64,000 nt of DNA from Pseudomonadota bacterium (GCA_009926935.1 RFNZ01000003.1:16238-80237); one strand, 5' to 3'. Positions 13,342-29,841 are shown, counted from the first letter of the stretch. A program made the numbers and translations. The notes: generated from the sequence alone by a model not told the origin.

Positions 13342-14099
13342 AATCCAAATTGTTCAGCTAAAATGCGGTCTTCCAGGCTGTTGCCTTCGGCGAACAGGAT
13401 GGTCGCTGTCACTGATTTATCCAAAATAATTTCTGTTGATGTGACATCGTCAACTTCGTGGAAATCGGCGATGGCGTGGACCCCTCTGCGATCGGCGTCC
13501 AGCACATCGATTTTGACTTTGGCGTTATCTTCCAACAAGGCACCAGACCAGCGCCGTGGGCGGAACGGGCAAATGGGTGTGAGCGCCAGTAAATTGGCAT
13601 TGAGCGGCAAAATTGGTCCGTAGGCTGAAAGATTATAGGCTGTTGACCCCATGGGTGTTGCGAGCAATACGCCGTCTCCCACCAGCTGTTCCACCCGTAT
13701 TTTACCATCGACAGTTATTTTGAGTTTGGCGGCTTGTACGCCTGTGCGTGTAATCGATACTTCGTTGAAGGCGATGTGTTCGCTTACGCTGCCATCTAGC
13801 TTTTTTGCTTGCATGCGTAGAGGATGCACATGAACAGGGGAGGATGCCTTGATCGCGGTTTCAAGATTATCGCTTGATCCGAATTCGTTCAGCAGAAACC
13901 CATGTGTACCGCGATGCAGGCCGTAAAAAGGCTTACCAAGATGTACGTGCTCGTGCAGTGTACGCAGCAAAAAACCATCACCACCCAAGGTTACGATGAC
14001 ATCAGCCTCTTTTGGTTCCACTGCGTTAATAGTCTTGCGCAGCACATCCATTTCAGGGGTGTTGTCGCGCTTTTTTGAGGCCAGAAGTGCGATTTTCAT
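13338..14099 (-). CDS. nadK: NAD kinase
   Basis: LGGDG, NE and GDGVLLATPMGSTAYNLSAYGP motifs. Confidence 0.95.
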   Translation of the reverse strand: MKIALLASKKRDNTPEMDVLRKTINAVEPKEADVIVTLGGDGFLLRTLHEHVHLGKPFYGLHRGTHGFLLNEFGSSDNLETAIKASSPVHVHPLRMQAKKLDGSVSEHIAFNEVSITRTGVQAAKLKITVDGKIRVEQLVGDGVLLATPMGSTAYNLSAYGPILPLNANLLALTPICPFRPRRWSGALLEDNAKVKIDVLDADRRGVHAIADFHEVDDVTSTEIILDKSVTATILFAEGNSLEDRILAEQFGF

Positions 14100-14770
14100 G
14101 CAGCGATATCTTCGCCTTTGCCGCCGTGCGCCACAGACCACGCAACAGGGTCTTTCAGGAATAATTCAACGGATTCAAGCACGGCGTTATCAAAGCGTTT
14201 TTCATCCCGTGCGAGTGCTATCACATCCTGCCAGTTGCAAAGGGCAAGGGTGTTCATGCCTAAATCCTTCATTTCCTTTTTTGTGCTTTCATGGCCGTAA
14301 GTGAAAATCACGAAGACGGTATCGACGACAGCTTCAGCGGCGCGCAGGGCGTCGACAAAAACCTTTACACTAACGCCATAATTTTGAAGATCTTCCGTGA
14401 TAATCACGCGGTTGCCGCGTGCGATATTTCCCTCGATTTGCGAGTTTGTGCCAATGTTTTTTGGTTTTTTGCGTACATATATCATGGGCTTTTGCAAACG
14501 ATCAGCAATAAAAGCGGCATAGGGAATGCCAGCTGTTTCACCGCCTGCTACCACATCTATATCTTTTGCATTCTGTTTAATGGTTTCCGCTGCAAAATCC
14601 ATGAGTGTCGAGCGTTCTTTGGTAAAGGAAATCAGGCGGCGGCAATCAACATACACAGGGCCTTTGCGGCCTGATGTGTATGTAAACGGTGGGTCCGCGC
14701 TGATCAGGACTGATTTTGTATCCAGCAGGATGCGTGCTGTGTCGCGGGCAATTTGTTCACGTGTCGCCAT
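14096..14770 (-). CDS. pyrE: Orotate phosphoribosyltransferase
   Basis: FTYTSGRKGPVYVDCR, AGGETAGIP, YVRKKPK and ITEDL motifs. Confidence 0.93.
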   Translation of the reverse strand: MATREQIARDTARILLDTKSVLISADPPFTYTSGRKGPVYVDCRRLISFTKERSTLMDFAAETIKQNAKDIDVVAGGETAGIPYAAFIADRLQKPMIYVRKKPKNIGTNSQIEGNIARGNRVIITEDLQNYGVSVKVFVDALRAAEAVVDTVFVIFTYGHESTKKEMKDLGMNTLALCNWQDVIALARDEKRFDNAVLESVELFLKDPVAWSVAHGGKGEDIAA

Positions 14771-14826: not shown

Positions 14827-15474
14827 CTACTGGCTAACCCACAAAATACGAGCGAGCCACAGTACATCGTTCATGGCGATAGTGCGGCTTTCATGGGCAG
14901 GGTTTAGTGATTTCAGCTCGATTTTTTGGGCTGTTTTTCGTGCGAGTTCCTTGGCCATGACTTCACCGTTTTTGGTTTTCATGACCACGCGGTCGCCTTT
15001 ACGAAGCTGGGCCGTAGGGCTTACCACGATGACATCGCCGTCGCGGTAAAGTGGCAGCATGGAATCTCCCTGAATCTCGAGTGCATAGGCATGATCGTCG
15101 ATGGATTGTGTGTCAGGAAAGCGAACCTCATCCCATCCGCTGCCAGCTGGAAAGCCTGAATCATCGAAATAGCCATCGCGGCCTGCTTGTGCAAGGCCAA
15201 TCAGAGGGATAGGCCTTACAGCACGCGAAGATACCGTGATTTGCCGCATTTCAACGAGGCCGATGAAATCCGTCATTGTGGTTTCAGTAACCGAGAGGAT
15301 CTTTGCGATACTCTCCGTCGAAGGCCAGCGGGGCTTGCCCTCCGGGCTGATGCGTTTGGAACGATTGAAGGCGGTTGGGTCAAGGCCAGCTCGCTTCGCA
15401 AGCCCTGATGTTGAGAAGCCCGTATTTTCGGCGAGTTTGTCGATGGCGATCCAGATGGCGTCGTGAGAGATCAT
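14827..15474 (-). CDS. XRE-HTH + S24 peptidase CI-like repressor (RogA-like)
   Basis: HTH STSGLAKRAGLDPTAFNRSKR..PRWPSTESIAKIL; Ala-Gly site (AQAG), catalytic Ser (GDSM) and Lys (MAKEL). Confidence 0.9.
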   Translation of the reverse strand: MISHDAIWIAIDKLAENTGFSTSGLAKRAGLDPTAFNRSKRISPEGKPRWPSTESIAKILSVTETTMTDFIGLVEMRQITVSSRAVRPIPLIGLAQAGRDGYFDDSGFPAGSGWDEVRFPDTQSIDDHAYALEIQGDSMLPLYRDGDVIVVSPTAQLRKGDRVVMKTKNGEVMAKELARKTAQKIELKSLNPAHESRTIAMNDVLWLARILWVSQ

Positions 15475-15502: not shown

Positions 15503-15554
15503 TAGGAAAACTGTCATATAGGAATCGGTTATCGTAAATAGGATATAATTCCTA
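15503..15554. promoter_or_regulatory. Tandem repressor operators TAGGA-N6-TCCTA
   Basis: Perfect TAGGA-TATAAT-TCCTA at 15539-15554; one-mismatch TAGGA-AAACTG-TCATA at 15503-15518; partial TAGGA-N8-TCGTA at 15519-15536. Confidence 0.75.
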
Positions 15555-15563
15555 AAATAATTG

Positions 15564-15608
15564 TTGACGCAGGCGTGTTGTTCGTTCAGTTTAGAACAAA
15601 ACAGGAAC
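15564..15608 (+). promoter_or_regulatory. Sigma70-like promoter with alphaproteobacterial LexA (SOS) box
   Basis: TTGACG(15564)-17 nt-CAGTTT(15587); GAAC-AAAACAG-GAAC at 15594-15608 matches GAAC-N7-GAAC. Confidence 0.72.
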
Positions 15609-15629
15609 AAAGCAACCCGAAAGTCAGCC

Positions 15630-16088
15630 ATGCCCAAACCACCACGCGCTCCCGTCCAGACAAGCCTTCATACCACAGTTCCTTTCGATACGACTGAGGA
15701 AGTCTGGTTCTGGTTTATACAGGCCAATGAGGCAAGGCTCGATGGTGCGCGCTTTACGGCTGTGCGCGGCAATGTCCGGCGCCCGTGCGAGCCCGTTGAT
15801 ATTTTGCGCATTCTTGATCGTTTGTATCGTTCGCGCCGCCTGATGATGGATCATTTGCGTGTGCTGCGCTTTTACGGCATACGGCAAATGCCGCCTGAGG
15901 GCTGGCGCAAGTCAGAAGCGCGGGCCGCAACATTATGGGCGGAAGCCATGCGCGCGCTTGAGCCCATTTTTGTCTCTAAGAAAATCATGAAAGACCCATT
16001 TGTACGCATGGTGGATGCACACCGTGTTGTCGTGCCTCTTTGGGGTTTGCCTCAGTCATCCCAATCCATGAATGAGGCATGTCCATGA
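15630..16088 (+). CDS. Hypothetical basic protein, first gene of virion cluster (candidate regulator)
   Basis: 152 aa Arg-rich helical protein (EEVWFWF..RPCEPVDILRILDRLYR); start moved to ATG 15630. Confidence 0.8.
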   Translation: MPKPPRAPVQTSLHTTVPFDTTEEVWFWFIQANEARLDGARFTAVRGNVRRPCEPVDILRILDRLYRSRRLMMDHLRVLRFYGIRQMPPEGWRKSEARAATLWAEAMRALEPIFVSKKIMKDPFVRMVDAHRVVVPLWGLPQSSQSMNEACP

Positions 16089-16453
16089 GTGCGTTTTATA
16101 TTGTTTTTTCAGGCAAGACCGATGTCTGGTGGCTGCGGCTTTTGAGACCAGGATTCAGGCATTGTTTTGCACTTGTGCGTGATACGGAGCGATGGATTGT
16201 CGTTGATCCGATGCTACACAAGATGGAAGTGCTGACAACCGCGTGCCCGCATGATTTTGATTTGCCTGCGTGGATGCGCGCACGCGGATACCGTGTTTTG
16301 CGTGTTCCGGTGCTTACACCGATGCGCCGTGCTTTGGCACCGGCCCCTTTTACATGCGTTGAAGCCATGAAGCGACTGATCGGCCTTCAGGAATGGCGCA
16401 TTTTCACGCCTTGGCAGCTTTATCGGCGCCTTGTCGCCCTCAATTCACAGTAA
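16085..16453 (+). CDS. Hypothetical phage protein, possible permuted papain-like fold
   Basis: PGFRHCF...FTCVEAMKR..TPWQLY; ATGA overlap. Confidence 0.75.
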   Translation: MSAFYIVFSGKTDVWWLRLLRPGFRHCFALVRDTERWIVVDPMLHKMEVLTTACPHDFDLPAWMRARGYRVLRVPVLTPMRRALAPAPFTCVEAMKRLIGLQEWRIFTPWQLYRRLVALNSQ

Positions 16454-16464
16454 GGAGAAAAATC

Positions 16465-16713
16465 ATGGGAAGCCTTTTTACAAAACCAAAATTGCCTGAC
16501 CCGGTCAGCTATGCGTATGTGCCGCCGGCCCAGTCGGCACCTGCACCTATATCAACGCCGCCAGCAGGCAGTGAAGCCGATCCGGATGTCGATCGTGCCA
16601 AGACGCTTGTACAAAAAAAGCGGTCCTTGCCGCAGACCATTGAAACGTCGTTTCGCGGTGTTCTTGCGCAAGCCGATTTTGTGCCTGCGCGCAAAAGCCT
16701 TTTAGGAGAATAA
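16465..16713 (+). CDS. Small pre-portal virion protein (T7 gp7.3-like position)
   Basis: AAGGAG RBS; Pro-rich N-terminus, C-terminal RKSLLGE, directly before portal. Confidence 0.75.
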   Translation: MGSLFTKPKLPDPVSYAYVPPAQSAPAPISTPPAGSEADPDVDRAKTLVQKKRSLPQTIETSFRGVLAQADFVPARKSLLGE

Positions 16714-16716
16714 AAC

Positions 16717-18195
16717 ATGAAACCATCATCAAATATCGTATCTGACGCGGCGTCAAAAATTTCCCAATCCTATGCACAGGCGCGCAGCCGTCGCGCTGTT
16801 TGGGAAGGTGTTTGGCGTGATTGTTATTCGTATGCGTTGCCTCATGCGGATGCATTTCAGTCGCGTTCTACCGCAAACCAGATTTTTGACGGTACGGCCA
16901 TGGATGCGGTTGACCAACTTGCATCATCACTTCTGGCTAACCTTACGCCTCCGTGGTCCTCTTGGTTTGGGCTCAAACCGGGGCCGGAGCTAAGTATTGC
17001 CGAAGCTGAATCACTTGCCCCACTGCTTGAGGGTGCGGCCCGTGTCATGCAGGCACATTTTGACAGATCGAATTTTGCGGTCGAGATGCATCAGGCCTTT
17101 TTGGATCTGGTTACCGCAGGTACCGGTACGCTTTTGTTTGAAGAGGCAGGTGTTGGGCAAATGGCGGCTTTTAAATTTTCGGCCTTGCCGCTTTCAACCG
17201 TCACGCTTGATGAAAGCCTTTCTACCGGACGTCTGGAAACAGTCTACCGCGAAACAAAAATGACGATTTCTGGTATCCAGGCACGTTTCCCAAAGGCCCA
17301 ATTGCCAGCGGCGCTTTTGCGTGAAAAAGACGATGATAAAACTTTTACCATCCTTGAAAGCGCCATACCTGACGCTGAGAAGCCTTTTATCGGGTATGTG
17401 GTTGTTTTGACAGAGCCTTATGAAACGGTGCTTCTGGAAACGCAAATACCAGCTTCGCCATTTATCGCTTTTCGTTGGGCTAAAGCCCCCGGTGATACTT
17501 ACGGGCGATCACCTGTCATGAAGGCGCTTCCGGATATCAAGACGGCCAACAAGGTTGTCGAGCTTATCTTAAAAAATGCGTCCATTGCCGTCACAGGTAT
17601 ATGGCAGGCGGATGATGACGGTGTTCTTAACCCCGCAACGATAGAGCTTACACCGGGGGCCATTATCCCGAAAGCCGTTGGCTCTGCCGGTTTGCGCCCC
17701 TTGGAAATGCCGGGCAGGTTTGATGTCAGTCAGCTTGTACTTGATGATTTGCGTGCTCGCATTCGTCATGCGCTTTTGACCGACCGGCTTGGCCAAATCG
17801 GCGATCGCCGGATGACGGCAACGGAAGTGCTTGAACGTAGTTCAGAGATGGCATTGCTTTTAGGCGCTACGTATGGCCGCCTGCAATCGGAGTTGCTAAC
17901 GCCACTTATCCAGCGCGGCTGGAACATTTTGCGTCGACGCGGTGAAGTGCCGGATGTGTCTATTGATGGGCGCACCGTGCAGCTGGATTACCGAAGCCCG
18001 CTTGCGCGTGCGCAGGGGCAGCGCGGTGTTGCCAATACCATCAACTGGGTCACGACTACCCTTGCCATGGGCGAGGAAGCCGCAAGCGCTATTGATCTTG
18101 CCGGTGCTGCCCGCTTTATCGGCGAAGCACTTGGCGTGCCCAGCGACATTATCCGCAAAGACCTGTCATCCATCACCAAGGAGAACCAAACATGA
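16717..18195 (+). CDS. Podovirus portal (head-tail connector, T7 gp8 family)
   Basis: D.TA.DAVDQLASSLLANLTPP..WF, RW...PGDTYGRSP, RMTATEVLER and GRLQSELLTPLI motifs. Confidence 0.92.
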   Translation: MKPSSNIVSDAASKISQSYAQARSRRAVWEGVWRDCYSYALPHADAFQSRSTANQIFDGTAMDAVDQLASSLLANLTPPWSSWFGLKPGPELSIAEAESLAPLLEGAARVMQAHFDRSNFAVEMHQAFLDLVTAGTGTLLFEEAGVGQMAAFKFSALPLSTVTLDESLSTGRLETVYRETKMTISGIQARFPKAQLPAALLREKDDDKTFTILESAIPDAEKPFIGYVVVLTEPYETVLLETQIPASPFIAFRWAKAPGDTYGRSPVMKALPDIKTANKVVELILKNASIAVTGIWQADDDGVLNPATIELTPGAIIPKAVGSAGLRPLEMPGRFDVSQLVLDDLRARIRHALLTDRLGQIGDRRMTATEVLERSSEMALLLGATYGRLQSELLTPLIQRGWNILRRRGEVPDVSIDGRTVQLDYRSPLARAQGQRGVANTINWVTTTLAMGEEAASAIDLAGAARFIGEALGVPSDIIRKDLSSITKENQT

Positions 18196-18455
18196 TTGAT
18201 TTTTTGAGAAAGTTTTTATCGAGCCCGCTATTGCAGGAGCCAAAAACAGTCGTCCCGCTGCGGGAAGATGCGCCGCGCATATTTGCCCGCGTTTTCGGCC
18301 AAGATGACGGGCAGCGTGTGCTTTCGTATTTGCGCGCCACTGTTAATGCCCGTTCGGCAGGGCCTGAATCCAGCGAGGCCATGCTTCGTTACATGGACGG
18401 GCAACGTGCCCTTTTGCAAACCATCCAAGGCCTTGTGGATCAGGGTCGCGGTTAA
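18192..18455 (+). CDS. Small post-portal protein (Bbp19-like)
   Basis: FARVF..DDGQRVLSYLR..LRYMDGQR, typical of the gene between portal and scaffold in podoviruses. Confidence 0.75.
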   Translation: MIDFLRKFLSSPLLQEPKTVVPLREDAPRIFARVFGQDDGQRVLSYLRATVNARSAGPESSEAMLRYMDGQRALLQTIQGLVDQGRG

Positions 18456-18471
18456 ACCACAGGAGAGAAAA

Positions 18472-19188
18472 ATGACTGAGACAAACCTACTTGCCGCGCA
18501 ACCCGTCGTTGCCGGTAAACCGAATGGCCTTCCAGACAAGTTCTGGGATTCCGAAACCAATTCAGTGCGCATGGACGATCTTGTGAAATCCTATTGTGCG
18601 CTCGAGAAAAAAATGTCAGCCGGTTTTTCTATGCCGGATGATGAGGAAGGGCGCATGAAAGTACTGCGTGCTCTTGGCGTGCCTGAGACACCGGATGCCT
18701 ATCAGGTTACTGTTAAGGACAATCTGCTCGAGCCGGATATGGAAGTGAACAAGCGCCTTCATGCAAAGGGTTTTACCCCTGAGCAGGTTCAGGAAGTTTA
18801 TGATCTGGCAGCGGACCGCTTGGTACCGATGATTTTGGATATTGCTGCTGAATTTCAGGCGGAACGCGAGATCGAGCGCCTTGTAGAAGCTTTTGGCGGG
18901 CCTGAGCAATGGCGAGAGGTTTCACGCCAGCTTCTGGCCTTTGGCCGCAAAAACCTTCCGCCGGCAGTCCTTGAAGGTCTTTCGGGTTCGTATGACGGTG
19001 TCATGGCCCTTCACCGCATGATGAAGGGTGATGCTCCTGCAATGCTTGATAGTGCCAAAGCTACGGGCGCTGTCACTGAGGCTGAACTGCAAAGTCTGAT
19101 GCGTGATCCTAAATACTGGCGTGACCGTGACCCTGCGACTATGGCTAAGGTTACTGACGGGTTTAAGCGGATATACGGCAAGAACTAA
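18472..19188 (+). CDS. Capsid assembly scaffolding protein
   Basis: KP..LPDKFWD..L.KSY.ALEKK, PETPDAY and LMRDPKYW motifs; AGGAG RBS. Confidence 0.82.
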   Translation: MTETNLLAAQPVVAGKPNGLPDKFWDSETNSVRMDDLVKSYCALEKKMSAGFSMPDDEEGRMKVLRALGVPETPDAYQVTVKDNLLEPDMEVNKRLHAKGFTPEQVQEVYDLAADRLVPMILDIAAEFQAEREIERLVEAFGGPEQWREVSRQLLAFGRKNLPPAVLEGLSGSYDGVMALHRMMKGDAPAMLDSAKATGAVTEAELQSLMRDPKYWRDRDPATMAKVTDGFKRIYGKN

Positions 19189-19192
19189 GAAT

Positions 19193-19220
19193 AAAAAACC
19201 CGCCATCTGGCGGGTTTTTT
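19193..19220. terminator. Bidirectional intrinsic terminator between scaffold and PilZ genes
   Basis: AAAAAACCCGCCA-TC-TGGCGGGTTTTTT. Confidence 0.88.
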
Positions 19221-19606
19221 TAAGCCTGCTGTTCAGATTCAGGTTTTAGGGCCATCGTGCTTTCTATGACTTTTGAGAAGGCGCTCTGGATTTTTTTCGG
19301 AACGTCGATGAATTCAAGGGCGACATTCACTTTACTGGCGCGGATGACGCGCGCTTTGACCGGAATTTCAGTTACGACATCGCTCAGTTTGAATTTCATT
19401 ACAACGCTGCATTCAGTGTTTGATTCAAACACTCTGCCATCAGCTTCAAACAGCACGCCGCATTGTGACCAGTCACGTACGGGATAATTGGTGCCATCCA
19501 CTTGAGCTACGCATATATCGGTCATACGGCGGGGGAAGCGGCGGCGCGTGGCTTCCTTGTTGTCGTTAATGGCGCTTTGCAGGCTTTTCAGGATTTTTTC
19601 GTTCAT
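19220..19606 (-). CDS. Stand-alone PilZ-domain protein
   Basis: RRRFPR (RxxxR) and DWSQCG (DxSxxG) c-di-GMP-binding motifs. Confidence 0.85.
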   Translation of the reverse strand: MNEKILKSLQSAINDNKEATRRRFPRRMTDICVAQVDGTNYPVRDWSQCGVLFEADGRVFESNTECSVVMKFKLSDVVTEIPVKARVIRASKVNVALEFIDVPKKIQSAFSKVIESTMALKPESEQQA

Positions 19607-19652
19607 GAAGCGCAATGTACCATTTTTGTATGGAGCCGGTCAAAAAAGTGTG

Positions 19653-19681
19653 TTGACAAACTAGGAAATTAATCCTAAAGT
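19653..19681 (+). promoter_or_regulatory. Sigma70 promoter of capsid operon with embedded operator
   Basis: TTGACA(19653)-17 nt-TAAAGT(19676); TAGGA-AATTAA-TCCTA at 19662-19677. Confidence 0.8.
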
Positions 19682-19914
19682 ACTTTTGTAAACACCACAC
19701 ATGCGCCTAAAAAGCGCGTGTTACGAGGGGGTTGGTGTTTCCCCCTCCATTTTATCTTCTTATCTTTTTTTTACAGGCGAGAGACAACGGGATGGCTATC
19801 GGGCCATCCCGCCTTTCGTTTTTTACCCGACTCATTGCCGCGGCTTTGCCTGCGAAAACAGTGTTCAGGGCCTCTCCCCCAAAACCAACTATCAACCAGA
19901 AAGGAAGGACAAGC

Positions 19915-20745
19915 ATGTCCATTTCTATCGATAACGCGTTCGTCAAACAATTCGAACGCGAAGTATTCGAGGCCTATCAACGCATGGGCTCGAAACTACG
20001 CCCGACAGTACGCAGCAAAAGCAACGTCAAGGGTTCCAGTGCCGTGTTCCAAAAAGTAGGTACCGGTACGGCCTCTACCAAATCAACACACGGTATGGTG
20101 CCTGTGATGAATATCAACCATACATCGGTTGAAGCCACGCTTCAGGATTATTACGCCGGTGACTGGGTAGACAAGCTTGATGAGCTGAAAGTCAACCATG
20201 ATGAGCGCCAGGTCATTGCAAATGCTGGTGCTTATGCCCTTGGTCGTAAGACTGACGAGCTTATCATCAACTCTCTTAATGCTTCGACCAATACGGTCAC
20301 CGATACGGCGCAAGGCCTGACCATCGATAAAATTCTTGAAGCATTCGAGAAGCTGGGCGCACAGGAGATCCCTGATGACGGCCAACGCACGGCGATTGTT
20401 GGCTGGAAGCAGTGGTCACAGCTTTTGGCTCTTAAGGAATTTGCGAATGCCGATTACGTGGGTTCAGAAGATCTGCCGTTTTCAGGCACGCAGGCCGTAA
20501 GATGGCTTGGCACGCTCTGGATGCCGCATGGCGGTCTTCCTATCAACAACACTACCGGTGTGCGTCGCTGCTTCTGGTACCACAAGACGGCTATAGGACA
20601 CGCTTCAGGCGCTGATGTCGAGACTGACATCACGTGGCATGGCGACCGTGCAGCCTATTTTGTCAACAGCATGATGAGCCAAGGCACTGCCCTTATTGAA
20701 GGTCAGGGTGTTGTTGTCATGACCTGTGATGAAACACCGGCATAA
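19915..20745 (+). CDS. Major capsid protein (podovirus-type, 276 aa)
   Basis: FVKQFE..V..AYQRMGSKLR, WVDKLDELK and A.ALGRKTDELII motifs; AAGGA RBS; position after scaffold. Confidence 0.88.
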   Translation: MSISIDNAFVKQFEREVFEAYQRMGSKLRPTVRSKSNVKGSSAVFQKVGTGTASTKSTHGMVPVMNINHTSVEATLQDYYAGDWVDKLDELKVNHDERQVIANAGAYALGRKTDELIINSLNASTNTVTDTAQGLTIDKILEAFEKLGAQEIPDDGQRTAIVGWKQWSQLLALKEFANADYVGSEDLPFSGTQAVRWLGTLWMPHGGLPINNTTGVRRCFWYHKTAIGHASGADVETDITWHGDRAAYFVNSMMSQGTALIEGQGVVVMTCDETPA

Positions 20746-20769
20746 CGAACGCAAAGAAGGAGAAAAACA

Positions 20770-21012
20770 ATGCCTTATAATTCAAACAATCTGAGCGTTC
20801 TCGCTTATGCCAACAACTTCACGCTGTGGCACTACACCACGACGGATTCATCTGTCACTGGTGCGGGGTACTTCAACAGTGCTTCCGACATGCTGCGCGT
20901 GAATGATCTCATTATTGCGAATATCGCAACGGGAGGCAGCCCTTCTACGATCTTCTATATCGTGACAGGTAATACGAACGGCGTCGTTACAGTAGCCACG
21001 TTTACTGCCTAA
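20770..21012 (+). CDS. Small beta-rich virion protein (possible head decoration protein)
   Basis: Strong AAGGAG RBS; WHYTT.D..V...GYFN.A..ML...DLI; co-transcribed with capsid before a terminator. Confidence 0.7.
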   Translation: MPYNSNNLSVLAYANNFTLWHYTTTDSSVTGAGYFNSASDMLRVNDLIIANIATGGSPSTIFYIVTGNTNGVVTVATFTA

Positions 21013-21072
21013 ACCTGATGATCTGCCTGCTTTTGCCCCTTTAGCGGCGGATTGTCGAGACTGTTGTGATGG

Positions 21073-21104
21073 AGGCGGACCGGTGCACTCGGTCCGCCTT
21101 TTTT
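21073..21104 (+). terminator. Intrinsic terminator after capsid genes (T7 T-phi-like position)
   Basis: AGGCGGACCG-GTGCACT-CGGTCCGCCT followed by T tract. Confidence 0.88.
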
Positions 21105-21130
21105 AATTCATTTAACCATGGAGTGATTAC

Positions 21131-21700
21131 ATGCCCCTAAACGATGTTGCTCTTGCCAGCCGTGCTCTTATTCGGATTGGCTGTAAACCTATTTCATCCT
21201 TTGCAGATGGTACGGCGGAATCCGAAATTGCCGGAGCTCTTTATGCGCCATCACGGGATGCGCTGCTTTCCGCTTATGGTTGGTCCTTTGCAACGGGGCA
21301 GGTAGCACTTACGCGCCTGACCGAAGTGCCGATGGCGGATTACCAGTACGCCTATGGCCTTCCCAATGATTTTTTGCGCGCTCTATCTGCCGGCAATGGC
21401 GGACGTGGCCGCGGCCTTGATTACCGTATTTCGCGCAACGTGCTGCATACAGATGCTGAAGAAGTTCTGCTGACTTACATTTTTCTGCCGGATGAATCCG
21501 AATTTCCGCCGTTTTTTGCTACCACTCTCATCGCGCGTCTGGCTGCAGAATTCACGATCCCTCTCACCGAAAGCACTTCACGGGCTGAAGTACTTTACAA
21601 GCTGTCTGAAGATGAGTTCAGAAAAGCTAAACAGATCGACGCCCAGCAGGATGCGCCTTCGCGGATCGAAAACTTCCCTCTTGTCGATGTGCGAGGATAG
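21131..21700 (+). CDS. Tail tubular protein A / adaptor (T7 gp11-like)
   Basis: RALIRIG..PISSF..RDALL..Y.WSFA..Y.LP.DFLR; 189 aa; position after capsid. Confidence 0.82.
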   Translation: MPLNDVALASRALIRIGCKPISSFADGTAESEIAGALYAPSRDALLSAYGWSFATGQVALTRLTEVPMADYQYAYGLPNDFLRALSAGNGGRGRGLDYRISRNVLHTDAEEVLLTYIFLPDESEFPPFFATTLIARLAAEFTIPLTESTSRAEVLYKLSEDEFRKAKQIDAQQDAPSRIENFPLVDVRG

Positions 21701-21703
21701 GTC

Positions 21704-23602
21704 ATGCCGATTGTCCAAAACATCAAAACGAATTTTACGGCGGGCGAGGTTTCGCGTCGGCTTTTGGGGCGTGGTGATTTGCGAGCCTATGAAAATGGCG
21801 CCCTTACGCTGCGCAACCTTTTTATCCATCCGACTGGCGGTGTTTCACGCCGATCAGGCATGCGTTTTATTGATACTGTGCCTGGCGGCGGGCGCCTTAT
21901 CGATTTTGAATTCAATACCGAGCAAACATACTTATTGGTTCTTACAACTGGTGCCTTGCGTATTTATCAGGATGACACGCTGGTCACTACACTTAGCGCT
22001 CCGTGGAACGTATCTCAAATTTCGTCACTTAATTGGACGCAAAGCGCGGATACGCTTCTGATTGTTCACCCAGATGTGCCGCCAAAAAAACTAACTAGAT
22101 CGGGCGCTGGAGTTTGGGCATTGACTGACTGGGTTTTTGATACGGCTACCAGCGTCAATAAAATTTACCAACCCATGTTCAAGTTTGCTGATGGTGCCAT
22201 TACCGTTACGCCAAGTGGTACAACCGGTAGTGTTACATTGACGGCATCCAGCAGTGTTTTTCTTGCGGGGCACGCTAACACGCGTCTTCGTGTTGGAGGC
22301 AAAGAAGTTTTGATTACATCAGTCGCATCCGGCACGGTTGTGCAGGTTACTGTAATTGAAACACTTGCCGGTACAACTGCTACAAAAGACTGGGAGGAGC
22401 AGTCATTCAGTGCCGTGCGCGGGTATCCTACATCTTGCGCGTTTCATCAGGACAGGCTTGTCATAGGCGGTAGCCGAGACTTGCCGAACAGGCTCTGGAT
22501 GTCGAAATCAGGCGAGCTCTGGAACTTTGATCTGGGCGAAGGGCTTGATGATGAATCCATTGAGTTTGCAATCTTATCCGATCAGGTGAATGCGATACGA
22601 AATGTTTTCTCAGGAAGGCATTTACAGGTTTTTACGTCGGGTGCCGAATGGCAAGTGACTGGCGACCCATTGACGCCGACAACCGTGCAATTAAACAGGC
22701 AAACGCGAGTCGGTAGTGTAGTTGACAGGTCAGTGCCGCCCGTTGATGTTGATGGCGCAACAATTTTTGTGGCACGCAATGGGCAAGAGCTGCGCGAATT
22801 TATATATACGGATGTAGAAGCCGCGTATCGTTCCAATGATCTTGCGCTTCTGGCGCAGCATATCATCCGTGACCCGATTGATCAGGCATTCGATAAGAAA
22901 AATAGGTTATTGCATCTGGTTCTTGCCGATGGCGGTATTGCTACATTAACGGCTTACCGGGCGGAGCAGGTAGCCGCTTGGACGTTACAGGAAACGGATG
23001 GCAAGGCCCTTTCTGTCGCGGCCGTAGGGGAGGTTATCTACCTACTGATCGAGCGTGGCGGCGTTTATACGGTTGAAGCTTTTGACGAAGCACTTTCCAT
23101 GGATTCGGCTCTTGCGGGCTCAAGCACAACCCCCAGTCTGACATGGTCCGGCCTCGGGCATTTGAACGGCAAAACGGTAACAATTTTGGCCGACGGTGTT
23201 CTGCGACCTAGTGCGGTTGTAAGTGGCGGCATCGTAACCCTTGCAACGCCGGCTACGAGCGTGCAAATCGGCCTTCCGTATACCCATGTGGTTGAGCCAC
23301 TACCGCCTAATGCCCTTTCAAACGGCGGCATTGTAAGGACGGCACGTTTGGTTGAAGCCGTTTTCCGAATTGAGAGCACTGCGGCATTACGTGTTGATGT
23401 CGGCCGTGGTTTGCGCGATGTGCCGCTACGCGAAGTTGGCGGGAGCTTGGATACGCCACCGCCCGAGGTTTCAGGTGACATCCGTGTGCGTGCCTTCGGC
23501 TGGCAACAAGATGGTACAAAGTCACTTTGGCGCATCGAGCAATCGGTGCCGCTGCCATTCACACTTCTTTCGGTAGCAACAAACATCAAAGCCAGTGAGT
23601 AG
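21704..23602 (+). CDS. Tail tubular protein B / nozzle (T7 gp12-like)
   Basis: NFTAGEVS..GGVSRR.G, TQSADTL..VHP, GYP..FHQDRL and LGHLNG.TV..LADG motifs. Confidence 0.85.
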   Translation: MPIVQNIKTNFTAGEVSRRLLGRGDLRAYENGALTLRNLFIHPTGGVSRRSGMRFIDTVPGGGRLIDFEFNTEQTYLLVLTTGALRIYQDDTLVTTLSAPWNVSQISSLNWTQSADTLLIVHPDVPPKKLTRSGAGVWALTDWVFDTATSVNKIYQPMFKFADGAITVTPSGTTGSVTLTASSSVFLAGHANTRLRVGGKEVLITSVASGTVVQVTVIETLAGTTATKDWEEQSFSAVRGYPTSCAFHQDRLVIGGSRDLPNRLWMSKSGELWNFDLGEGLDDESIEFAILSDQVNAIRNVFSGRHLQVFTSGAEWQVTGDPLTPTTVQLNRQTRVGSVVDRSVPPVDVDGATIFVARNGQELREFIYTDVEAAYRSNDLALLAQHIIRDPIDQAFDKKNRLLHLVLADGGIATLTAYRAEQVAAWTLQETDGKALSVAAVGEVIYLLIERGGVYTVEAFDEALSMDSALAGSSTTPSLTWSGLGHLNGKTVTILADGVLRPSAVVSGGIVTLATPATSVQIGLPYTHVVEPLPPNALSNGGIVRTARLVEAVFRIESTAALRVDVGRGLRDVPLREVGGSLDTPPPEVSGDIRVRAFGWQQDGTKSLWRIEQSVPLPFTLLSVATNIKASE

Positions 23603-23611
23603 GAGAAATAT

Positions 23612-24133
23612 ATGGGAACATTAGCAGGCATTGCCTCGGCGCTCTCGCCGATTTTGACAGGGGCAGGCATACCCGGTGCCGTTGTCGGGTTTGGAACACA
23701 ATATCTTAATCAACGTATTGCTAGGGATGATCTGCGCCGTCAGCAAGATCAGGCTCTTGTTCAATTGCAGAGCAAGCAAAGACTGGATGAAGAGCAGTCG
23801 GCCCAAAATGCAACTTTAGAAAAACAAAAAATTGCAAATGAAACAGCTGCCAATGAACTAAGACGAAGACAGGCACTAAAACGTGCTGTTGCACGGCAAA
23901 AGACCCTTTTTTCTGCGCAGGGACTGGGTGGCGAAGACGCAGGATCAAACGAAGCGGTTTTGCTTGGGCTTGTGAATTCGAGTGAGGAGGAAAGCGCCGA
24001 GACCGAAAGGCTCGCAAACCTACGACGCCAGACTCTTGATCAGTCTCTTTCACAGCAGAAGCAGAAAAATCTTTTGGAATCAACACAGCTAGCACAGCGC
24101 CAAAGCCTTGCTAGGTATATCCTGGAATCTTAA
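23612..24133 (+). CDS. Internal virion protein (gp14-like)
   Basis: Gly/Ala-rich hydrophobic N-terminus followed by Gln/Arg-rich coiled coil; follows tail tube B. Confidence 0.6.
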   Translation: MGTLAGIASALSPILTGAGIPGAVVGFGTQYLNQRIARDDLRRQQDQALVQLQSKQRLDEEQSAQNATLEKQKIANETAANELRRRQALKRAVARQKTLFSAQGLGGEDAGSNEAVLLGLVNSSEEESAETERLANLRRQTLDQSLSQQKQKNLLESTQLAQRQSLARYILES

Positions 24134-24162
24134 TTATGTTAAATCTATTTAACCATAATAAC

Positions 24163-24191
24163 TTGACACTAGGTCTATAAATACCTACAAG
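24163..24191 (+). promoter_or_regulatory. Sigma70-like promoter of RTX gene with TAGGT-N8-ACCTA palindrome
   Basis: TTGACA(24163)-17 nt-TACAAG; palindrome at 24170-24187. Confidence 0.55.
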
Positions 24192-24225
24192 TGCGGTGAC
24201 CGATTAATATTTTCAGGAGTTTGCG

Positions 24226-25701
24226 ATGTCGATTTACACCAATATTGCTGCCAATTCTTCAACTGTTTCCTTCATGCGCAATGATGGCGATAGCTATACC
24301 ACGTTCAATTACAACGTGGCCACCGGCAACGTGACATTGGGCCTTTATGGCGGGCTGAACGGCATTGGGCTTCCTGCCAATATGCACCGTACGATGACCT
24401 ATAATATTGCGACGGATACGGTTACCGCGATGACCCTTGTCACGGGTTACGGCTACCGTTACCCGATTACAACGACGCTTGGCGGCAGCGACGATGTTGT
24501 TCAGGGCATCTCCAAAAATGATCTGATTTATGCAGGTGGCGGGAATGACACCGTCAACACCAGCACGGGCAATGACATCGTTTACGGCCAGGAAGGCAAC
24601 GACATTATCAATGGTAGCAGTGCGCTGACCTCGCTTAATGGCGATCGCAATATGTTCTTTGGCGGCAACGGCAACGATACACTCGATGGCAAGACAGGCA
24701 ATGACTGGATGTTTGGCGGTAGCGGCCTCAATCTTTACAAAGATATGTCGGGCCATAACGTTGTGATTGGCGGTATCGATGCCGATACGATCAGAACCGG
24801 TACGGGCAACGACATTATCCTTGATGCGTTTGGCAACAATTCAGTGACATCCGGCGATGGTGACGATTTCGTTGTCATGGGCGCGGGTGTTGATGACATC
24901 AAGGTCGATGCAGGCAACGATACCGTTTATGCTGGCGGCGGCGATGATATCATCCGCGGGTTTGACGGTAATGACCTTCTCAACGGCCAAGAAGGCAACG
25001 ACGATATCTACGGCGGTAACGGCAACGATACCCTGTTTGGTGCAAACGGAAATGACTCGCTGAAAGGCGATGCCGGAAACGATGAGCTGTACGGCGGCGA
25101 AGGCGACGATTTCCTTTGGGGCTTTGGCGATAACGATATTCTGTACGCTGAAGGCGGTAACGATAACCTCGATGGTGGTGATGGCAATGACCTCCTGCGT
25201 GGCGGTGATGGCGCTGACTTCCTTCAGGGCGGGCGCGGCGATGATGCGCTTTACGGTGAAGCAGGTAACGATACGCTGCGTGGCGGTCTTGGTAACGATA
25301 CGCTTTATGCAGGGTTCGATACCGATATCATGAACGGCGATGCCGGTGATGATGTGCTGGTATCCAGCGGATTTGGCAAGGCCATCATGACGGGCGGTCT
25401 TGGCGCGGATACGTTCAAGTTCTTGGGCGTTGGCGAAGATTTTGCCGTAGTTAAAGATTTTAGAGGTAATGACAGCCTTGATATCTCTAACCTGCTGCAA
25501 GGGTTTGACCCGCTTCAGGATTCGATTGCAGACTTTGTCCGCATCAAAGATCGTGGCGGCAACAACTTCGACTTCAAAGTCAACTTTGACGGCCAAGGCG
25601 AGGACTTTGTGACTGTAGCCCGCGTGACCGGTGATTTGGGTGGACTTGCCCCAAGCACCTTGATGGCGCAAGGCCGTCTCATTGTTGATGATGGCGTATA
25701 A
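24226..25701 (+). CDS. RTX (hemolysin-type calcium-binding) repeat protein with type I secretion C-terminal domain
   Basis: Many GGxGxDxL nonapeptides; C-terminal GADTF..DF..D.LDISNLL.GFDPL.D.I.DFV; AGGAG RBS. Confidence 0.93.
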   Translation: MSIYTNIAANSSTVSFMRNDGDSYTTFNYNVATGNVTLGLYGGLNGIGLPANMHRTMTYNIATDTVTAMTLVTGYGYRYPITTTLGGSDDVVQGISKNDLIYAGGGNDTVNTSTGNDIVYGQEGNDIINGSSALTSLNGDRNMFFGGNGNDTLDGKTGNDWMFGGSGLNLYKDMSGHNVVIGGIDADTIRTGTGNDIILDAFGNNSVTSGDGDDFVVMGAGVDDIKVDAGNDTVYAGGGDDIIRGFDGNDLLNGQEGNDDIYGGNGNDTLFGANGNDSLKGDAGNDELYGGEGDDFLWGFGDNDILYAEGGNDNLDGGDGNDLLRGGDGADFLQGGRGDDALYGEAGNDTLRGGLGNDTLYAGFDTDIMNGDAGDDVLVSSGFGKAIMTGGLGADTFKFLGVGEDFAVVKDFRGNDSLDISNLLQGFDPLQDSIADFVRIKDRGGNNFDFKVNFDGQGEDFVTVARVTGDLGGLAPSTLMAQGRLIVDDGV

Positions 25702-25728
25702 AAAATAAAAAAATAGAAACACTTTTTT

Positions 25729-25753
25729 AAAGGGCCCTTTGGGGCCCTTTTTT
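25729..25753 (+). terminator. Intrinsic terminator after RTX gene
   Basis: AAAGGGCCC-TTTG-GGGCCCTTT-TTT. Confidence 0.8.
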
Positions 25754-25770
25754 ATTACTCAGGAGAAACC

Positions 25771-27807
25771 ATGTCCGATACACATATCAAAATACCCGAT
25801 GTTGTGCCGCTGGTGCGGTACACAGCCAACGGAACACAAACTGTTTTTGCGTATCCATTCCCCATCTTTGCATCCGAGGATATCGCTGTTTATTTTAACG
25901 GGGCGGAACAAGTATCCGACTTTACGGTATCAGGTGCGGGGCAGACGCTTGGCGGCAATGTTACGTTTACGGTCGCGCCTGCATCCGGTGTTGTGGTTGC
26001 GATTGAGCGGCGTGTACCGCTTGAACGCATGACGGATTTTTTGGAGGGTGGTGCGCTATCAGCAGTATCGCTTAATAACGAGCTTGATTACCTTACCGCT
26101 AGCGTGCAGCAACTCCAGCGTGATCAGGCGGATATGCTGCGCTTTGACGGGCTTGAAACGCCATCGCCGGTTGTGTTGCCTGTGCGGGATACCCGTAAAA
26201 ACCGTGCGCTTGGGTTTGATGCCAATGGTGACCTTACAACCTACCAGACCGGTAGTACGCTGGCCGCACCCACATACGCGCAAAGCGGTACGGGCGCTGT
26301 TACGCGTAATGTGACGGATAAAGTCAAAGAACGTGTTTCGGTTAAAGATTTTGGCGCTGTGGGGGATGGGGTTGCCAATGACACAACCGCCTTCCAGAAT
26401 GCTTTGGCGGCGCATAGCTCGGTGTTTGTGCCAGTTGGTACGTACCGTGTCACGGGTACGATTGTTTTGGGCGCAAACCAATGCCTTATCGGTGCTGGTC
26501 AGGGCAGTGTGATTGCGGCATCTGCCAATACATTTAACGTGATTGAGATGCGGGCGGGATATGCCACGCTTGCGGATTTGAAAATCACGGGCGGGGCTGT
26601 TGGTGTCAAGCTCTACGGCGTTACCGCGCCGTGTGTGCAGAATATTCTGCGCGACTTGGTGCTGTCTGGCGGCAATACCGGTATCCAGTTTGATGGGTAT
26701 AACGATACCAACAAACCCTGTTACTGGAACATGGTGGACCGCGTGCTTGTGTTATCACCGGCAACACACGGTGTGCATTTTACCAAAAGTGGGGCCGGAG
26801 ATACGCCGAATGCAAACCGTATCCAGAATCTGCGAGTGTACTCGCAGGGCGTGAACATCACGGGTAGCGGCATTTATGTGGAGCACGGCAGTCACGCTAA
26901 TCTGTTTACTGATTGTGAAGTAAACGTAAGCGGTACTGCGGCTGCGTGTGTGCGGGTGGGCACGAACGCCAACAAAACGCATTTTGTGAATTTGTATACC
27001 GAAAGCACAAATACGGTCCCGAATATACGGCTTGATGCGGGATCGCTTGATACCGCGATTTATAACCTCCATGCACAAAGCAACGGATCAGCCATTTATG
27101 ATTTATCGGGCGGGCAGTACACGGCTGTCAATGCCGGATATCCTTACAAATTTACGATGGGGAAGATTACGGTTGCCGATGCAAACTTAACGCTGCTGCG
27201 GCATGACACGGTGTTTGTGGATGCGGCTGGGGTTGCGACGATTGATATCACAACAGCACGGACGGTGCATCTTGTGGCCGCGACCAATGGCCAGATAACG
27301 ATGCGTTTGCCTGCGGCGTCGGCCGCGACGGGGGCTGTTTATACCGTCAAAAAAGTTGATAGCACCGGCAACATGGTGATTGTGACCGTTACAAGCGGTA
27401 TGGCGCCTGATGGGCGGGATGTGTATTTGGGCGGGCCGAATGATTACGTGACCGTGATGTCTAATGGGGCTTCGTGGTATGTGCTGTCATCCAACCGGAT
27501 GGCGGGGAACACGCGGTATCATGACGGTGCGGGTACGTATGATGTTGATATGGCGGTTGATACGTATCTTATGTCGTCGTTTGGCGGTGTTAAAACCGTA
27601 CGTTTGCCGCCTGCCAATGCCGCGAATGCGATTGGCCGGATTGTGCATATCAAAAAAATCGATGTATCGAGCAACGCTGTCAATGTGACCGTGCAGGGCG
27701 GCGGGAATATCGACGGCTCGTCTACAGCCGCGCTTACAGCGCAGTATCAATCGATCAGTGCGGTTTCGAATGGGGCGCAGTGGTTCCTTATCAACCGTTA
27801 TCCATGA
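25771..27807 (+). CDS. Tail fibre/tailspike: T7 gp17-like N-terminal anchor, pectate-lyase-like beta-helix, duplicated C-terminal domain
   Basis: YTANGTQTVFAYPFPIF..DF..G..LNNELDYL anchor; VSVKDFGAVGDGVANDT.AFQNA beta-helix start. Confidence 0.88.
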   Translation: MSDTHIKIPDVVPLVRYTANGTQTVFAYPFPIFASEDIAVYFNGAEQVSDFTVSGAGQTLGGNVTFTVAPASGVVVAIERRVPLERMTDFLEGGALSAVSLNNELDYLTASVQQLQRDQADMLRFDGLETPSPVVLPVRDTRKNRALGFDANGDLTTYQTGSTLAAPTYAQSGTGAVTRNVTDKVKERVSVKDFGAVGDGVANDTTAFQNALAAHSSVFVPVGTYRVTGTIVLGANQCLIGAGQGSVIAASANTFNVIEMRAGYATLADLKITGGAVGVKLYGVTAPCVQNILRDLVLSGGNTGIQFDGYNDTNKPCYWNMVDRVLVLSPATHGVHFTKSGAGDTPNANRIQNLRVYSQGVNITGSGIYVEHGSHANLFTDCEVNVSGTAAACVRVGTNANKTHFVNLYTESTNTVPNIRLDAGSLDTAIYNLHAQSNGSAIYDLSGGQYTAVNAGYPYKFTMGKITVADANLTLLRHDTVFVDAAGVATIDITTARTVHLVAATNGQITMRLPAASAATGAVYTVKKVDSTGNMVIVTVTSGMAPDGRDVYLGGPNDYVTVMSNGASWYVLSSNRMAGNTRYHDGAGTYDVDMAVDTYLMSSFGGVKTVRLPPANAANAIGRIVHIKKIDVSSNAVNVTVQGGGNIDGSSTAALTAQYQSISAVSNGAQWFLINRYP

Positions 27808-27819
27808 AATGGATTTTAG

Positions 27820-28137
27820 ATGCGAAAGAAAAAACAGGATGGAAATCTTGGCCCCGACATGCGCGCAAAAATTGCCGCAAGCCTTCCGGACGCCATTGAT
27901 TTTGCGATGCAGTCCTACCGAAAATTTTATGAACGGGAGAAGTATGAAGATGCCAAAGATTTTTCTGCCCACCATTCCGCCTGCAAAACGGCGATTGCCC
28001 ATATCGAGTTACTGTTGAAGCTCGCCGCGTGGGCAAAGTTGCCTGATGACGATACGGACCACGGCCTTGCGGCACTGCTGAGTGATGCCGAAGCGGAACT
28101 GAAACGCTACAACGCCGAAGAGGATGACGATGAATGA
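27820..28137 (+). CDS. Small helical protein, candidate terminase small subunit
   Basis: 105 aa with acidic tail; ATGA-coupled to TerL; positional inference only. Confidence 0.55.
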   Translation: MRKKKQDGNLGPDMRAKIAASLPDAIDFAMQSYRKFYEREKYEDAKDFSAHHSACKTAIAHIELLLKLAAWAKLPDDDTDHGLAALLSDAEAELKRYNAEEDDDE

Positions 28138-29579: not shown

Positions 29580-29583
29580 TGCG

Positions 29584-29841
29584 ATGGAAAATTTATTTTC
29601 TCAAGATTTGTTATGGTGGATCAAAGTTATTGAATTGCCTGCGCTTGCGGGCTTGCTTGCCCTTGTTATCAAAACGCGTGAAGAAGTCGTTGCCGGAAAA
29701 ATTGAATCCTTGCGGAACTTTGCAACTGTTTCCGCGATGCGGGAAGTAGAGCAACGGCTTGTATCGCATTTGCTGCGAATTGAGGCGAAGCTCGATAAAA
29801 CCGCGCTTAAAACGGAATCTCTTGTACGGGGGCGGCCATGA
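29584..29841 (+). CDS. Small single-TM protein of lysis cassette
   Basis: N-terminal TM plus coiled coil; ATGA-coupled to endolysin. Confidence 0.65.
   Translation: MENLFSQDLLWWIKVIELPALAGLLALVIKTREEVVAGKIESLRNFATVSAMREVEQRLVSHLLRIEAKLDKTALKTESLVRGRP

Follow-up and report, generated by a model that had tools for sequence, protein, structure and literature searches.

A conserved palindrome as the probable operator of a RogA-family repressor beside a T7-like particle gene cluster of the Micavibrio lineage

The 64,000-nt stretch of DNA analyzed here, called the window throughout (Pseudomonadota bacterium, GCA_009926935.1 RFNZ01000003.1:16238-80237), carries a T7-like cluster of phage-type structural genes, divided into an early operon (o1-o2-o3-portal-scaffold) and a late operon that begins with the capsid gene. 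There is a good likelihood that the palindrome TAGGA-N6-TCCTA found at the promoters of this cluster is the operator of the adjacent 215-residue repressor, a helix-turn-helix (HTH)-S24 protein of the RogA family. Sequence reading and pattern search located perfect copies at 15539-15554 (TAGGATATAATTCCTA) and 19662-19677 (TAGGAAATTAATCCTA) and a one-mismatch copy at 15503-15518 (TAGGAAAACTGTCATA), exactly the three copies reported by an earlier, sequence-only reading of the window, and the pattern search found no further copy with up to one mismatch in the 64 kb. We name these sites, listed without strand, O1 (15503-15518, with a TCATA right half, proximal to the repressor gene), O2 (15539-15554, 9 bp upstream of the -35 of the o1-portal operon), and O3 (19662-19677, in the capsid promoter). 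An extra TAGGAAT half-site at 15519-15525 directly abuts O1, whose TAGGAAAACTGTCATA-type sequence is also kept within the genus (L007-L011). The operator consensus is TAGGAAT-WWWW-TCCTA (W being A or T). Inside the window alone the excess over chance is modest, three copies against a shuffle mean of 0.58, with three being reached in 2 of 100 shuffles. The whole genome (2,043,699 bp or 2.04 Mb, rated 100% complete by marker genes) contains three perfect palindromes versus one for the reversed control pattern, and two of these three lie in the particle cluster, 4.1 kb from each other. By their sequence, the palindromes appear functional and operator-like.

Conservation of the palindrome was assessed in 60 relatives of the same order, which are kin, so that the counts are not to be read as a probability. 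The repressor was found in 38 of them and the capsid in 36 (both in 32, repressor only in 6, capsid only in 4, neither in 18), the two genes being about 5 kb apart where they are on one contig. On the repressor side, 30 loci were available, two of them without upstream sequence, and the 400 nt upstream contained a copy with at most one mismatch in 26 of the 28 scored loci (all but L031 and L035). On the capsid side, one of 30 loci was too short, and such a copy was present in 25 of the 29 scored loci, the window's own included (misses: L042, L051, L064, and L053, with 2 mismatches). When the loci of the window were excluded and 300 nt upstream were considered, copies with at most one mismatch preceded 25 of 27 repressor orthologues and 24 of 28 capsid orthologues, versus means of 0.22 (repressor) and 0.14 (capsid) and a maximum of 2 in 200 dinucleotide-preserving shuffles. 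Furthermore, between families the flanks have diverged past alignment and the palindrome is retained. The orthologous clusters, where the sequence-only reading had suggested looking for the motif, thus carry it at both promoters, and the refutation named in that reading, a motif missing from the orthologous promoters, does not apply.

O3 fills the spacer of the capsid-operon promoter TTGACA-17-TAAAGT (19653-19681, plus strand, found by promoter scan; TTGACA at 19653-19658, TAAAGT at 19676-19681) and overlaps its -10 hexamer, in agreement with the geometry first described. This arrangement is nearly invariant among the relatives: TTGACA is followed by 3 nt and by the 16-bp site, whose last TA begins the -10. 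Indeed, TTGAC stands 3 nt before the site in 21 of the 25 capsid loci having the site, giving the pattern TTGAC-N-N3-site-(TA)NNNT, and all four further Micavibrio-lineage loci carry the capsid-promoter operator. Since the operator occupies the spacer and covers the -10, direct repression of the capsid operon by RogA, as had been proposed, is well supported by position. At other promoters the site is found upstream of the -35, in the spacer, or over -10/+1, and this variable position fits a protein site better than a promoter element. The distribution of the capsid-promoter operator can also be related to a gene encoding a PilZ domain (19220-19615, minus strand, Pfam PilZ 4.7e-05), which is divergent from the capsid promoter and has on its own side a promoter-like TTGACC-18-TACATT on the minus strand at 19643-19614. 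The pilZ gene is found in the Micavibrio-lineage clusters and is absent from those of gut and rumen alphaproteobacterial metagenome-assembled genomes (MAGs), which have the order rogA-o1-o2-portal-scaffold-capsid-tail genes and in which the best match upstream of the capsid gene has four mismatches in all three cases. The operator being present in the pilZ-bearing clusters and not in the gut and rumen ones, the second promoter goes with the insertion of pilZ that split the operon.

The repressor gene (14827-15474, minus strand) encodes a protein with a DNA-binding N-terminal domain and an S24 domain of the LexA/CI type at its C-terminal end. Residues 90-210 match Pfam Peptidase_S24 (4.4e-24) and residues 12-214 the repressor family phrog_4; no Pfam HTH model matched the protein, and its N-terminal domain was delimited by family alignment. 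Alignment to lambda CI and UmuD indicates that it retains an AQAG cleavage motif, the serine of GDSM, and the lysine of AKEL, which we take to be the counterparts of A111-G112, S149, and K192 of lambda CI. Little or no variation in the Ala-Gly motif, in the Ser of G-x-S-M, or in the Lys is seen across 26 aligned family members. The genome encodes two S24 proteins, this repressor and LexA.

The repressor very probably belongs to the RogA family and is probably the orthologue of RogA (CCNA_00080) of Caulobacter crescentus, as judged from its termini, its length, its architecture, and the geometry of its sites; the resemblance to RogA noted at the outset is thereby strengthened. According to PMC9632790, C. 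crescentus RogA has 213 residues that make up an HTH and an S24-like domain, occurs in 819 of the 1,331 genomes of Alphaproteobacteria considered, and binds, in surface plasmon resonance (SPR), gafYZ promoter fragments bearing two GGAA-N4-TTCC inverted repeats. The interior of the palindrome, GGA(A/T)-N4-(A/T)TCC, has the core and spacing of this published repeat, which the sequence-only reading had given correctly. In addition, the rogA cloning primers in the supplement of PMC13236601 translate to the termini MATLSH and VWVSQ-stop, and the family termini, M(I/L)(S/T)H and an invariant (L/V)WVSQ, match these primer-derived ends. Homologues with 52-57% identity to the repressor occur in Hyphomonas, Rhizobium, Acetobacteraceae, and one Caulobacteraceae MAG (55%); phage CI proteins reach at most 31% identity, and no relative of the repressor was found in viral_contigs.

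Could the palindrome be bound by some other protein of the host, or by one encoded in the cluster, for instance o1, with the repressor recognizing something else? The o1 protein has, by weak matches, a helical fold resembling sigma region 4 or Q and is always encoded beside the sites in this lineage, and both features would suit such a role. However, the motif also precedes repressor homologues in genomes without an adjacent cluster. Among 36 loci with a repressor homologue, 11 lie beside T7-like genes, 2 end within o1/o2, 2 (Acetobacteraceae) have o1 only, and 21, those of Hyphomonas, Rhizobium, and Caulobacteraceae included, have the repressor alone; AGGA-N6-TCCT-type sites, scored by a relaxed 8-base criterion without shuffle control, stand just upstream of the repressor in these 21 loci, the site of the Caulobacteraceae MAG being CAGGAATATCGTCCTA. 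No o1 homologue was found in any of the five searched genomes with a cluster-free repressor homologue, and the SPR data mentioned above concern fragments with the same GGAA-N4-TTCC core. Moreover, exchange of the C-terminal domain leaves both the DNA-binding domain and the operator in place. In several sister families, the first ~75 residues of the repressor are fused to an orotate phosphoribosyltransferase (PRTase)-like domain of about 230 residues that replaces S24 (L033:1501-2433, L034:1501-2424, and L035:823-1731), and families with this fusion keep the capsid-promoter operator (L046, L047, L052, L054, L055, and L062), which ties the site to the N-terminal domain. Binding by a factor other than the repressor is, in our judgment, very improbable, and the palindrome is taken below as the likely RogA operator. 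The fusion itself looks like a joining with the PRTase gene that follows rogA in the window (14096-14770). It can also be observed that rogA, the PRTase gene, and the NAD-kinase-like gene look like one operon in the window.

The situation at the early operon is different, and here the idea that RogA directly represses both operons, proposed by the sequence-only reading, is well supported for the capsid operon and incomplete for the portal operon. The candidate sigma70-type promoter of the o1-portal operon (15564-15592, plus strand) consists of TTGACG (15564-15569), 17 nt, and a weak -10, CAGTTT. It was read from the sequence and was not reported by the consensus promoter scan; orthologous early promoters have TTGAC(A/G)-17-TTTATT-like hexamers. 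The distance of 9 bp from the end of O2 to the -35 is as previously described, and with its center near -52 the site stands outside the core promoter. The predicted -10/+1 is covered by a LexA box overlooked by the earlier reading, GAACAAAACAGGAAC (15594-15608, plus strand), a perfect GAAC-N7-GAAC. It agrees with the alphaproteobacterial LexA box consensus, the direct repeat GTTC-N7-GTTC. In this genome, perfect AGAACA-N6-GAACA occurs three times, once here and twice upstream of a dinB-like gene, and one-mismatch or GAAC-N7-GAA(C/T) repeats precede lexA and recA; the occurrence of such repeats at the lexA, recA, and dinB-like promoters designates the element as the local SOS box. With a LexA box over -10/+1 and O2 outside the core promoter, direct repression of the portal promoter by RogA is not evident in this genome.

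An alternative account of these sites is that O2, at the portal-operon promoter, activates transcription or serves only to autoregulate rogA, the early operon being purely LexA-dependent and RogA directly repressing only the late and unlinked promoters. It is a substantial possibility in our view, though short of probable. In its favor, a distance of 6-9 bp between the operator and the downstream TTGAC is kept in 15 of 28 orthologous loci, 16 of the 28 intergenic regions of the orthologues have GAAC-N7-GAAC, in many cases with two or three repeats in phase, and genus members with an insertion between rogA and o1 (L009-L011) have one set of sites near rogA and another beside the -35. On the other hand, loci free of LexA boxes, such as those of the sister families L020, L022, L023, and L026, have a RogA-type site in the -35/-10 spacer of the early promoter, so that direct repression of the early operon by RogA would exist in the repertoire of the system, and repression could also come from a site next to an A/T-rich UP-like stretch. 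As far as sequence allows a judgment, the early operon appears to be under LexA in this genus and under RogA in other families, and the position of O1, the half-site, and O2 seems to suit the autoregulation of rogA best; they may also act on the divergent promoter. A gene with a reverse-transcriptase domain (516 residues; genome C18:67288-68838, L104:2789-4339) lies directly upstream of the LexA-box-controlled dinB-like gene.

The operator is not confined to the cluster. The sequence-only reading had called for a genome-wide scan for unlinked regulon members, and such a scan, with a position weight matrix (PWM) built from 60 sites in relatives, brought to light a 110-residue protein gene and two MuF genes. 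Seven hits exceeded the best control hit (18.3): the two cluster sites, the 110-residue protein gene, the two MuF genes, nrdA, and dnaK. The promoters of the 110-residue protein gene and of the two MuF genes lie at C19:54654, C21:68009, and C6:5068. The third perfect palindrome of the genome, on contig C19, follows a promoter-like TTGACA-17-CAATAT and precedes a strong hairpin with a T-run upstream of the 110-residue protein gene (C19:54726-55058, L004:14727-15059), which is located between a wzc-like gene and recR. We considered that this palindrome might be a chance site and rejected the idea, as conservation of the downstream gene goes hand in hand with that of the operator (or of a LexA box). 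Indeed, the gene is present in 23 of 41 genomes with the family pattern of the capsid, 14 of 20 loci have a site with at most one mismatch upstream, and several others have LexA boxes in the spacer. By an RNAfold-based criterion, a terminator lies within 130 nt of the start in 19 of 20 loci (shuffle mean 1.8, maximum 4). The AlphaFold2 (AF2) model of the protein (mean predicted local distance difference test, pLDDT, 89) is a small jelly roll, with 40 matches at E <=1e-3 among predicted tailed-phage proteins (top TM-score 0.76) and weak matches only in the PDB.

Both MuF genes, one at C21:68096-68878 (L127:3097-3879) and its paralogue at C6:4241-5005 (L130:2242-3006), combine the Pfam domains PG_binding_1, Phage_Mu_F, and Colicin_E5. 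In front of each of them lie a RogA-type operator and a terminator in the leader. Genes for MuF-domain proteins whose C-termini vary were found in 13 of 41 genomes, in frames of 275-823 residues of which only residues ~4-140 are conserved. Among 11 such loci, a site with at most one mismatch lies upstream in seven and one with two mismatches in three; in the locus without a site, the gene is just downstream of the 110-residue protein gene of its genome. By their domains, the C21 and C6 genes look like MuF polymorphic toxins. The small open reading frames (ORFs) downstream of them could be candidate immunity genes. Regarding the remaining hits, about 150 nt separate the operator-like sites at C21:90857-90872 and C23:71116-71131 (PWM scores 21.8 and 20.2) from the genes downstream of them, dnaK and an nrdA-like gene for a ribonucleotide reductase.

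Downstream of the promoters of the capsid, 110-residue protein, and MuF genes, and ahead of the ribosome-binding site, come a short conserved sequence, ACGCC ... TGCGYC, and a hairpin resembling a terminator; the early operon is without a leader terminator of this type. In the window, the capsid leader of about 228 nt (19688-19914, plus strand) has terminator-like hairpins at 19727-19744 and 19788-19811 and a fold z-score of -3.3. It ends at ATG 19915, the capsid start provided with a ribosome-binding site and giving a product beginning MSISIDNAF; the ORF listed from 19732 is over-extended, as orthologues align only from residue 50-60 on. An RNAfold-based criterion detected a terminator-like structure in 12 of 25 orthologous capsid leaders versus a shuffle mean of 3.2 and a maximum of 7, and a stricter terminator finder (loop <=9) gave 6 of 25 versus 4.1 in shuffles, without separation. 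No Rfam family was found for the capsid leader or the intergenic regions, with sub-threshold chance hits only. Many families share a second conserved leader word, GGATAACGG or GACAACC, at a distance of 100-200 nt downstream from the capsid promoter (L038-L048; window ~19775-19790).

The first early gene, o1 (15630-16088, plus strand), encodes 152 residues predicted to be all-helical (AF2 model, pLDDT 87). It had no match in Pfam (E up to 5), NCBIfam, PHROGs, or by tblastn against phages; the protein atlas returned hypothetical clusters only, and neither Foldseek against the PDB nor a profile search against PDB sequences gave a match. The best fold matches by VIA-align were Q21 (6jnx_P, Z 5.9), AlpA (7xyb_G, Z 5.3 over 80 residues with 20% identity), and sigma region 4, all with Z <6 and within the range expected by chance for helical proteins. 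As a weak lead from the model, o1 is a candidate transcription factor or antiterminator. Together, the leader terminators and the o1 fold suggest a cascade of repressor, early factor, and antitermination. Lambda Q and AlpR-AlpA are known examples of such logic. It has also been described for GafZ in the Caulobacter gene transfer agent (GTA) (PMC11150451). In two Acetobacteraceae MAGs (L077 and L078), an o1 homologue (36-40% identity) is the sole divergent neighbor of rogA, with no particle genes within 8 kb, and this arrangement may be a remnant of the rogA-cluster layout.

The cluster as a whole spans about 16 kb (14.8-30.8 kb of the window on the Pfam and PHROG gene map), with the PRTase and NAD kinase (NADK) genes at one flank and nhaA and icd at the opposite one. 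The order NADK-PRT-rogA / cluster is common to the Micavibrio-lineage loci, with the nhaA flank where seen, and is the same across genera and families. The identity of capsid and repressor falls with relatedness, from 92% down to 64%. With respect to the closest relative, the number of synonymous substitutions per site (dS) is >1, and the ratio of nonsynonymous to synonymous substitution rates (dN/dS) has the values 0.034 (capsid), 0.064 (portal), 0.018 (repressor), and 0.066 (o1), next to 0.08-0.09 in the flanking genes; overall, dN/dS is 0.03-0.16, similar to the flanking host genes. By these sequence comparisons, the cluster is inherited vertically in the Micavibrio lineage under purifying selection. 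Shared flanks, identity that tracks relatedness, low dN/dS, and unlinked parts speak for a domesticated, GTA-like particle system rather than for a prophage.

An ordinary defective or cryptic T7-like prophage, whose palindromes would be CI operators without host function and whose conservation would come from recent spread, seems to us quite unlikely. The CI-like character of the repressor (phrog_4) would agree with it, as would the nearest phage capsids, those of pelagiphage podoviruses (48.7% identity for Hodr, ~31% for the HTVC010P type), and the decayed cluster on a contig of Micavibrio sp. UBA6145 (L068), in which what is left of the capsid gene runs directly into the genes for the cell-wall hydrolase and holin and the tail and terminase genes are missing, rogA, o1-o3, portal, and scaffold remaining. 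Against it stand the constant chromosomal flanks, the divergence of capsid and repressor in step with relatedness at high dS and low dN/dS, the distance of the repressor from viral proteins, and the location of essential-looking parts away from the cluster; furthermore, no integrase, polymerase, or primase gene was recognized between the flanking host genes on the gene map. As for known GTAs, the RcGTA hallmarks GTA_TIM and HK97 Phage_capsid had no match in the genome, the Caulobacter control being matched. The T7 RNA polymerase family also had no match in the genome, but its control matched nowhere either, so that this search is uninformative. In agreement with the missing RcGTA hallmarks, PMC5721377 states that Micavibrio has small RcGTA-homologue clusters only. 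We found no literature description of a T7-like or podovirus-type GTA or of a RogA-linked T7-like cluster.

The sites, where they lie, how well they are conserved, the very probable family of the repressor, and the synteny come from the sequence data. We infer the following scheme, binding, cleavage, order of events, and antitermination alike, for this presumably domesticated system. RogA dimers would bind O1 and O2 beside rogA, leading to autoregulation, and O3, in the spacer and over the -10 of the capsid promoter, where they would exclude RNA polymerase; they would bind like sites at the unlinked promoters of the jelly-roll phage-type gene and of the two MuF-toxin genes. The early operon would additionally, perhaps mainly, be held off by LexA on GAAC-N7-GAAC. 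Upon DNA damage, LexA would be removed and possibly RogA as well, by RecA-stimulated self-cleavage, conceivable because its Ala-Gly site, Ser, and Lys are retained. The late transcripts would then have to pass the leader terminators, possibly helped by an early product such as o1.

Several points weigh against this picture. The relatives are kin, so that the counts overstate the independent support, and the sites at homologues outside the order depend on a relaxed, shuffle-free criterion. The three sequencing runs that cover the locus are all DNA, from a single freshwater study. The presumed orthology with RogA is drawn from termini, length, architecture, and site geometry only, and C. crescentus RogA is reported, in PMC9632790, to be without the key cleavage residues, whereas the repressor described here and 25 aligned homologues keep Ser and Lys. 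In this genome, the portal-operon operator is outside the core promoter, and the consensus promoter scan found no promoter for rogA itself. Finally, the o1 fold matches do not rise above chance, and terminators are only moderately enriched in capsid leaders, the strict finder giving no separation.

Comparison with known systems places this locus closest to RogA of C. crescentus (PMC9632790; PMC11150451). Both repressors have 213-215 residues, an N-terminal HTH, and a C-terminal LexA/CI-like S24 domain, are chromosomal and widely conserved in Alphaproteobacteria, have matching termini and the same core and spacing of their sites, and keep off a phage-derived, lysis-causing particle system, as predicted in the present case. 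However, the Caulobacter target is gafYZ, encoding activators of an unlinked cluster of the RcGTA type (HK97-fold, siphovirus-like), whereas here the repressor gene abuts a T7-like, podovirus-type cluster, the sites are directly on structural-gene promoters, the cleavage site, Ser, and Lys are retained, and LexA boxes add SOS control. With lambda CI and LexA-type repressors, the protein shares S24 with Ala-Gly, Ser, and Lys, palindromic operators between the repressor gene and a divergent phage operon, and multiple adjacent sites (O1, half-site, O2) that suggest cooperative autoregulation; it differs from lambda CI by its low identity to phage CI proteins, by a setting that does not look like a prophage, and by an operator also present at unlinked chromosomal genes. 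The AlpR-AlpA pathway of programmed lysis in Pseudomonas aeruginosa (PMC7969949, PMC9371919) likewise has a LexA/CI-like repressor over a small early factor and, after the target promoters, intrinsic terminators that have to be overcome. AlpA is the second-best fold match of o1, within the noise range, but a profile search revealed no sequence similarity of o1 to AlpA or Q, and antitermination is deduced here from the leader terminators. The two regulon genes resemble the MuF polymorphic toxins of temperate phages (PMC5576092): they join Phage_Mu_F to a C-terminal Colicin_E5 RNase domain, and in relatives it is the first 140 residues that are kept, C-termini and lengths being variable. They differ in lying apart from the particle cluster, in having a RogA-type operator and a terminator in the leader, and in going with a head that is T7-like and not SPP1- or Mu-like.

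To our knowledge, no master repressor of a GTA other than RogA is known outside Rhodobacter, and RogA itself had until now been described only for the Caulobacter GTA, which is unrelated to the present cluster. A RogA-family repressor wired to a T7-like cluster, its intact cleavage residues, and the adjoining LexA boxes provide a testable link between DNA damage and particle production, and the same three findings suggest an origin for the RogA regulator. Through the compact regulon, with its operator, leader terminator, unlinked structural gene, and MuF toxin genes, a new class of domesticated phage particle could come to light in predatory bacteria. A broader reading, speculative and as a whole rather unlikely, joins these elements. 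RogA would originally have been the CI of a temperate, T7-like phage that underwent early domestication in Alphaproteobacteria. The ancestral layout would survive in the Micavibrio lineage and in some alphaproteobacteria of gut and rumen as a working podovirus-type particle system, a second, structurally unrelated alphaproteobacterial GTA. DNA damage would induce this system via LexA and a cleavable RogA, antitermination in the leaders would set its timing, and its particles would carry tRNase toxins linked to MuF; Caulobacter RogA-gafYZ would be a later rewiring of the orphaned repressor. If this is true, the particles of these predatory bacteria could be a weapon delivering toxin or DNA and not a gene-exchange device alone.

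The remaining genes of the cluster and its surroundings are as follows. On the plus strand, o1 is followed by the small conserved ORFs o2 and o3 (16079-16713), which have orthologues in the syntenic loci, the T7-type portal gene (16717-18195, Pfam Head-tail_con 2e-130), and the scaffold gene (18268-19188, Pfam Phage_T7_Capsid 8.6e-09). The late operon (19915-30824, plus strand) encodes, in addition to the capsid (19915-20745), o80, tail tubular proteins A and B, o173, an RTX-repeat protein, a tail fibre/spike, o105, the large terminase (phrog_38, 2.8e-80), a cell-wall hydrolase, and a GTA-type holin. Genes resembling gp15 or gp16 were not recognized in the cluster, and the RTX protein, with calcium-binding repeats and a C-terminal domain of the type I secretion kind (24226-25701, plus strand), is encoded at the place of the T7 internal core proteins. 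To one side of the cluster the window contains mreBCD, pbp2, rodA, pur genes, and an ATPase zeta inhibitor gene, and to the other nhaA, icd, folD, and ccm genes. The presence of a PilZ-domain gene inside the cluster may tie cyclic-di-GMP signaling to particle production.

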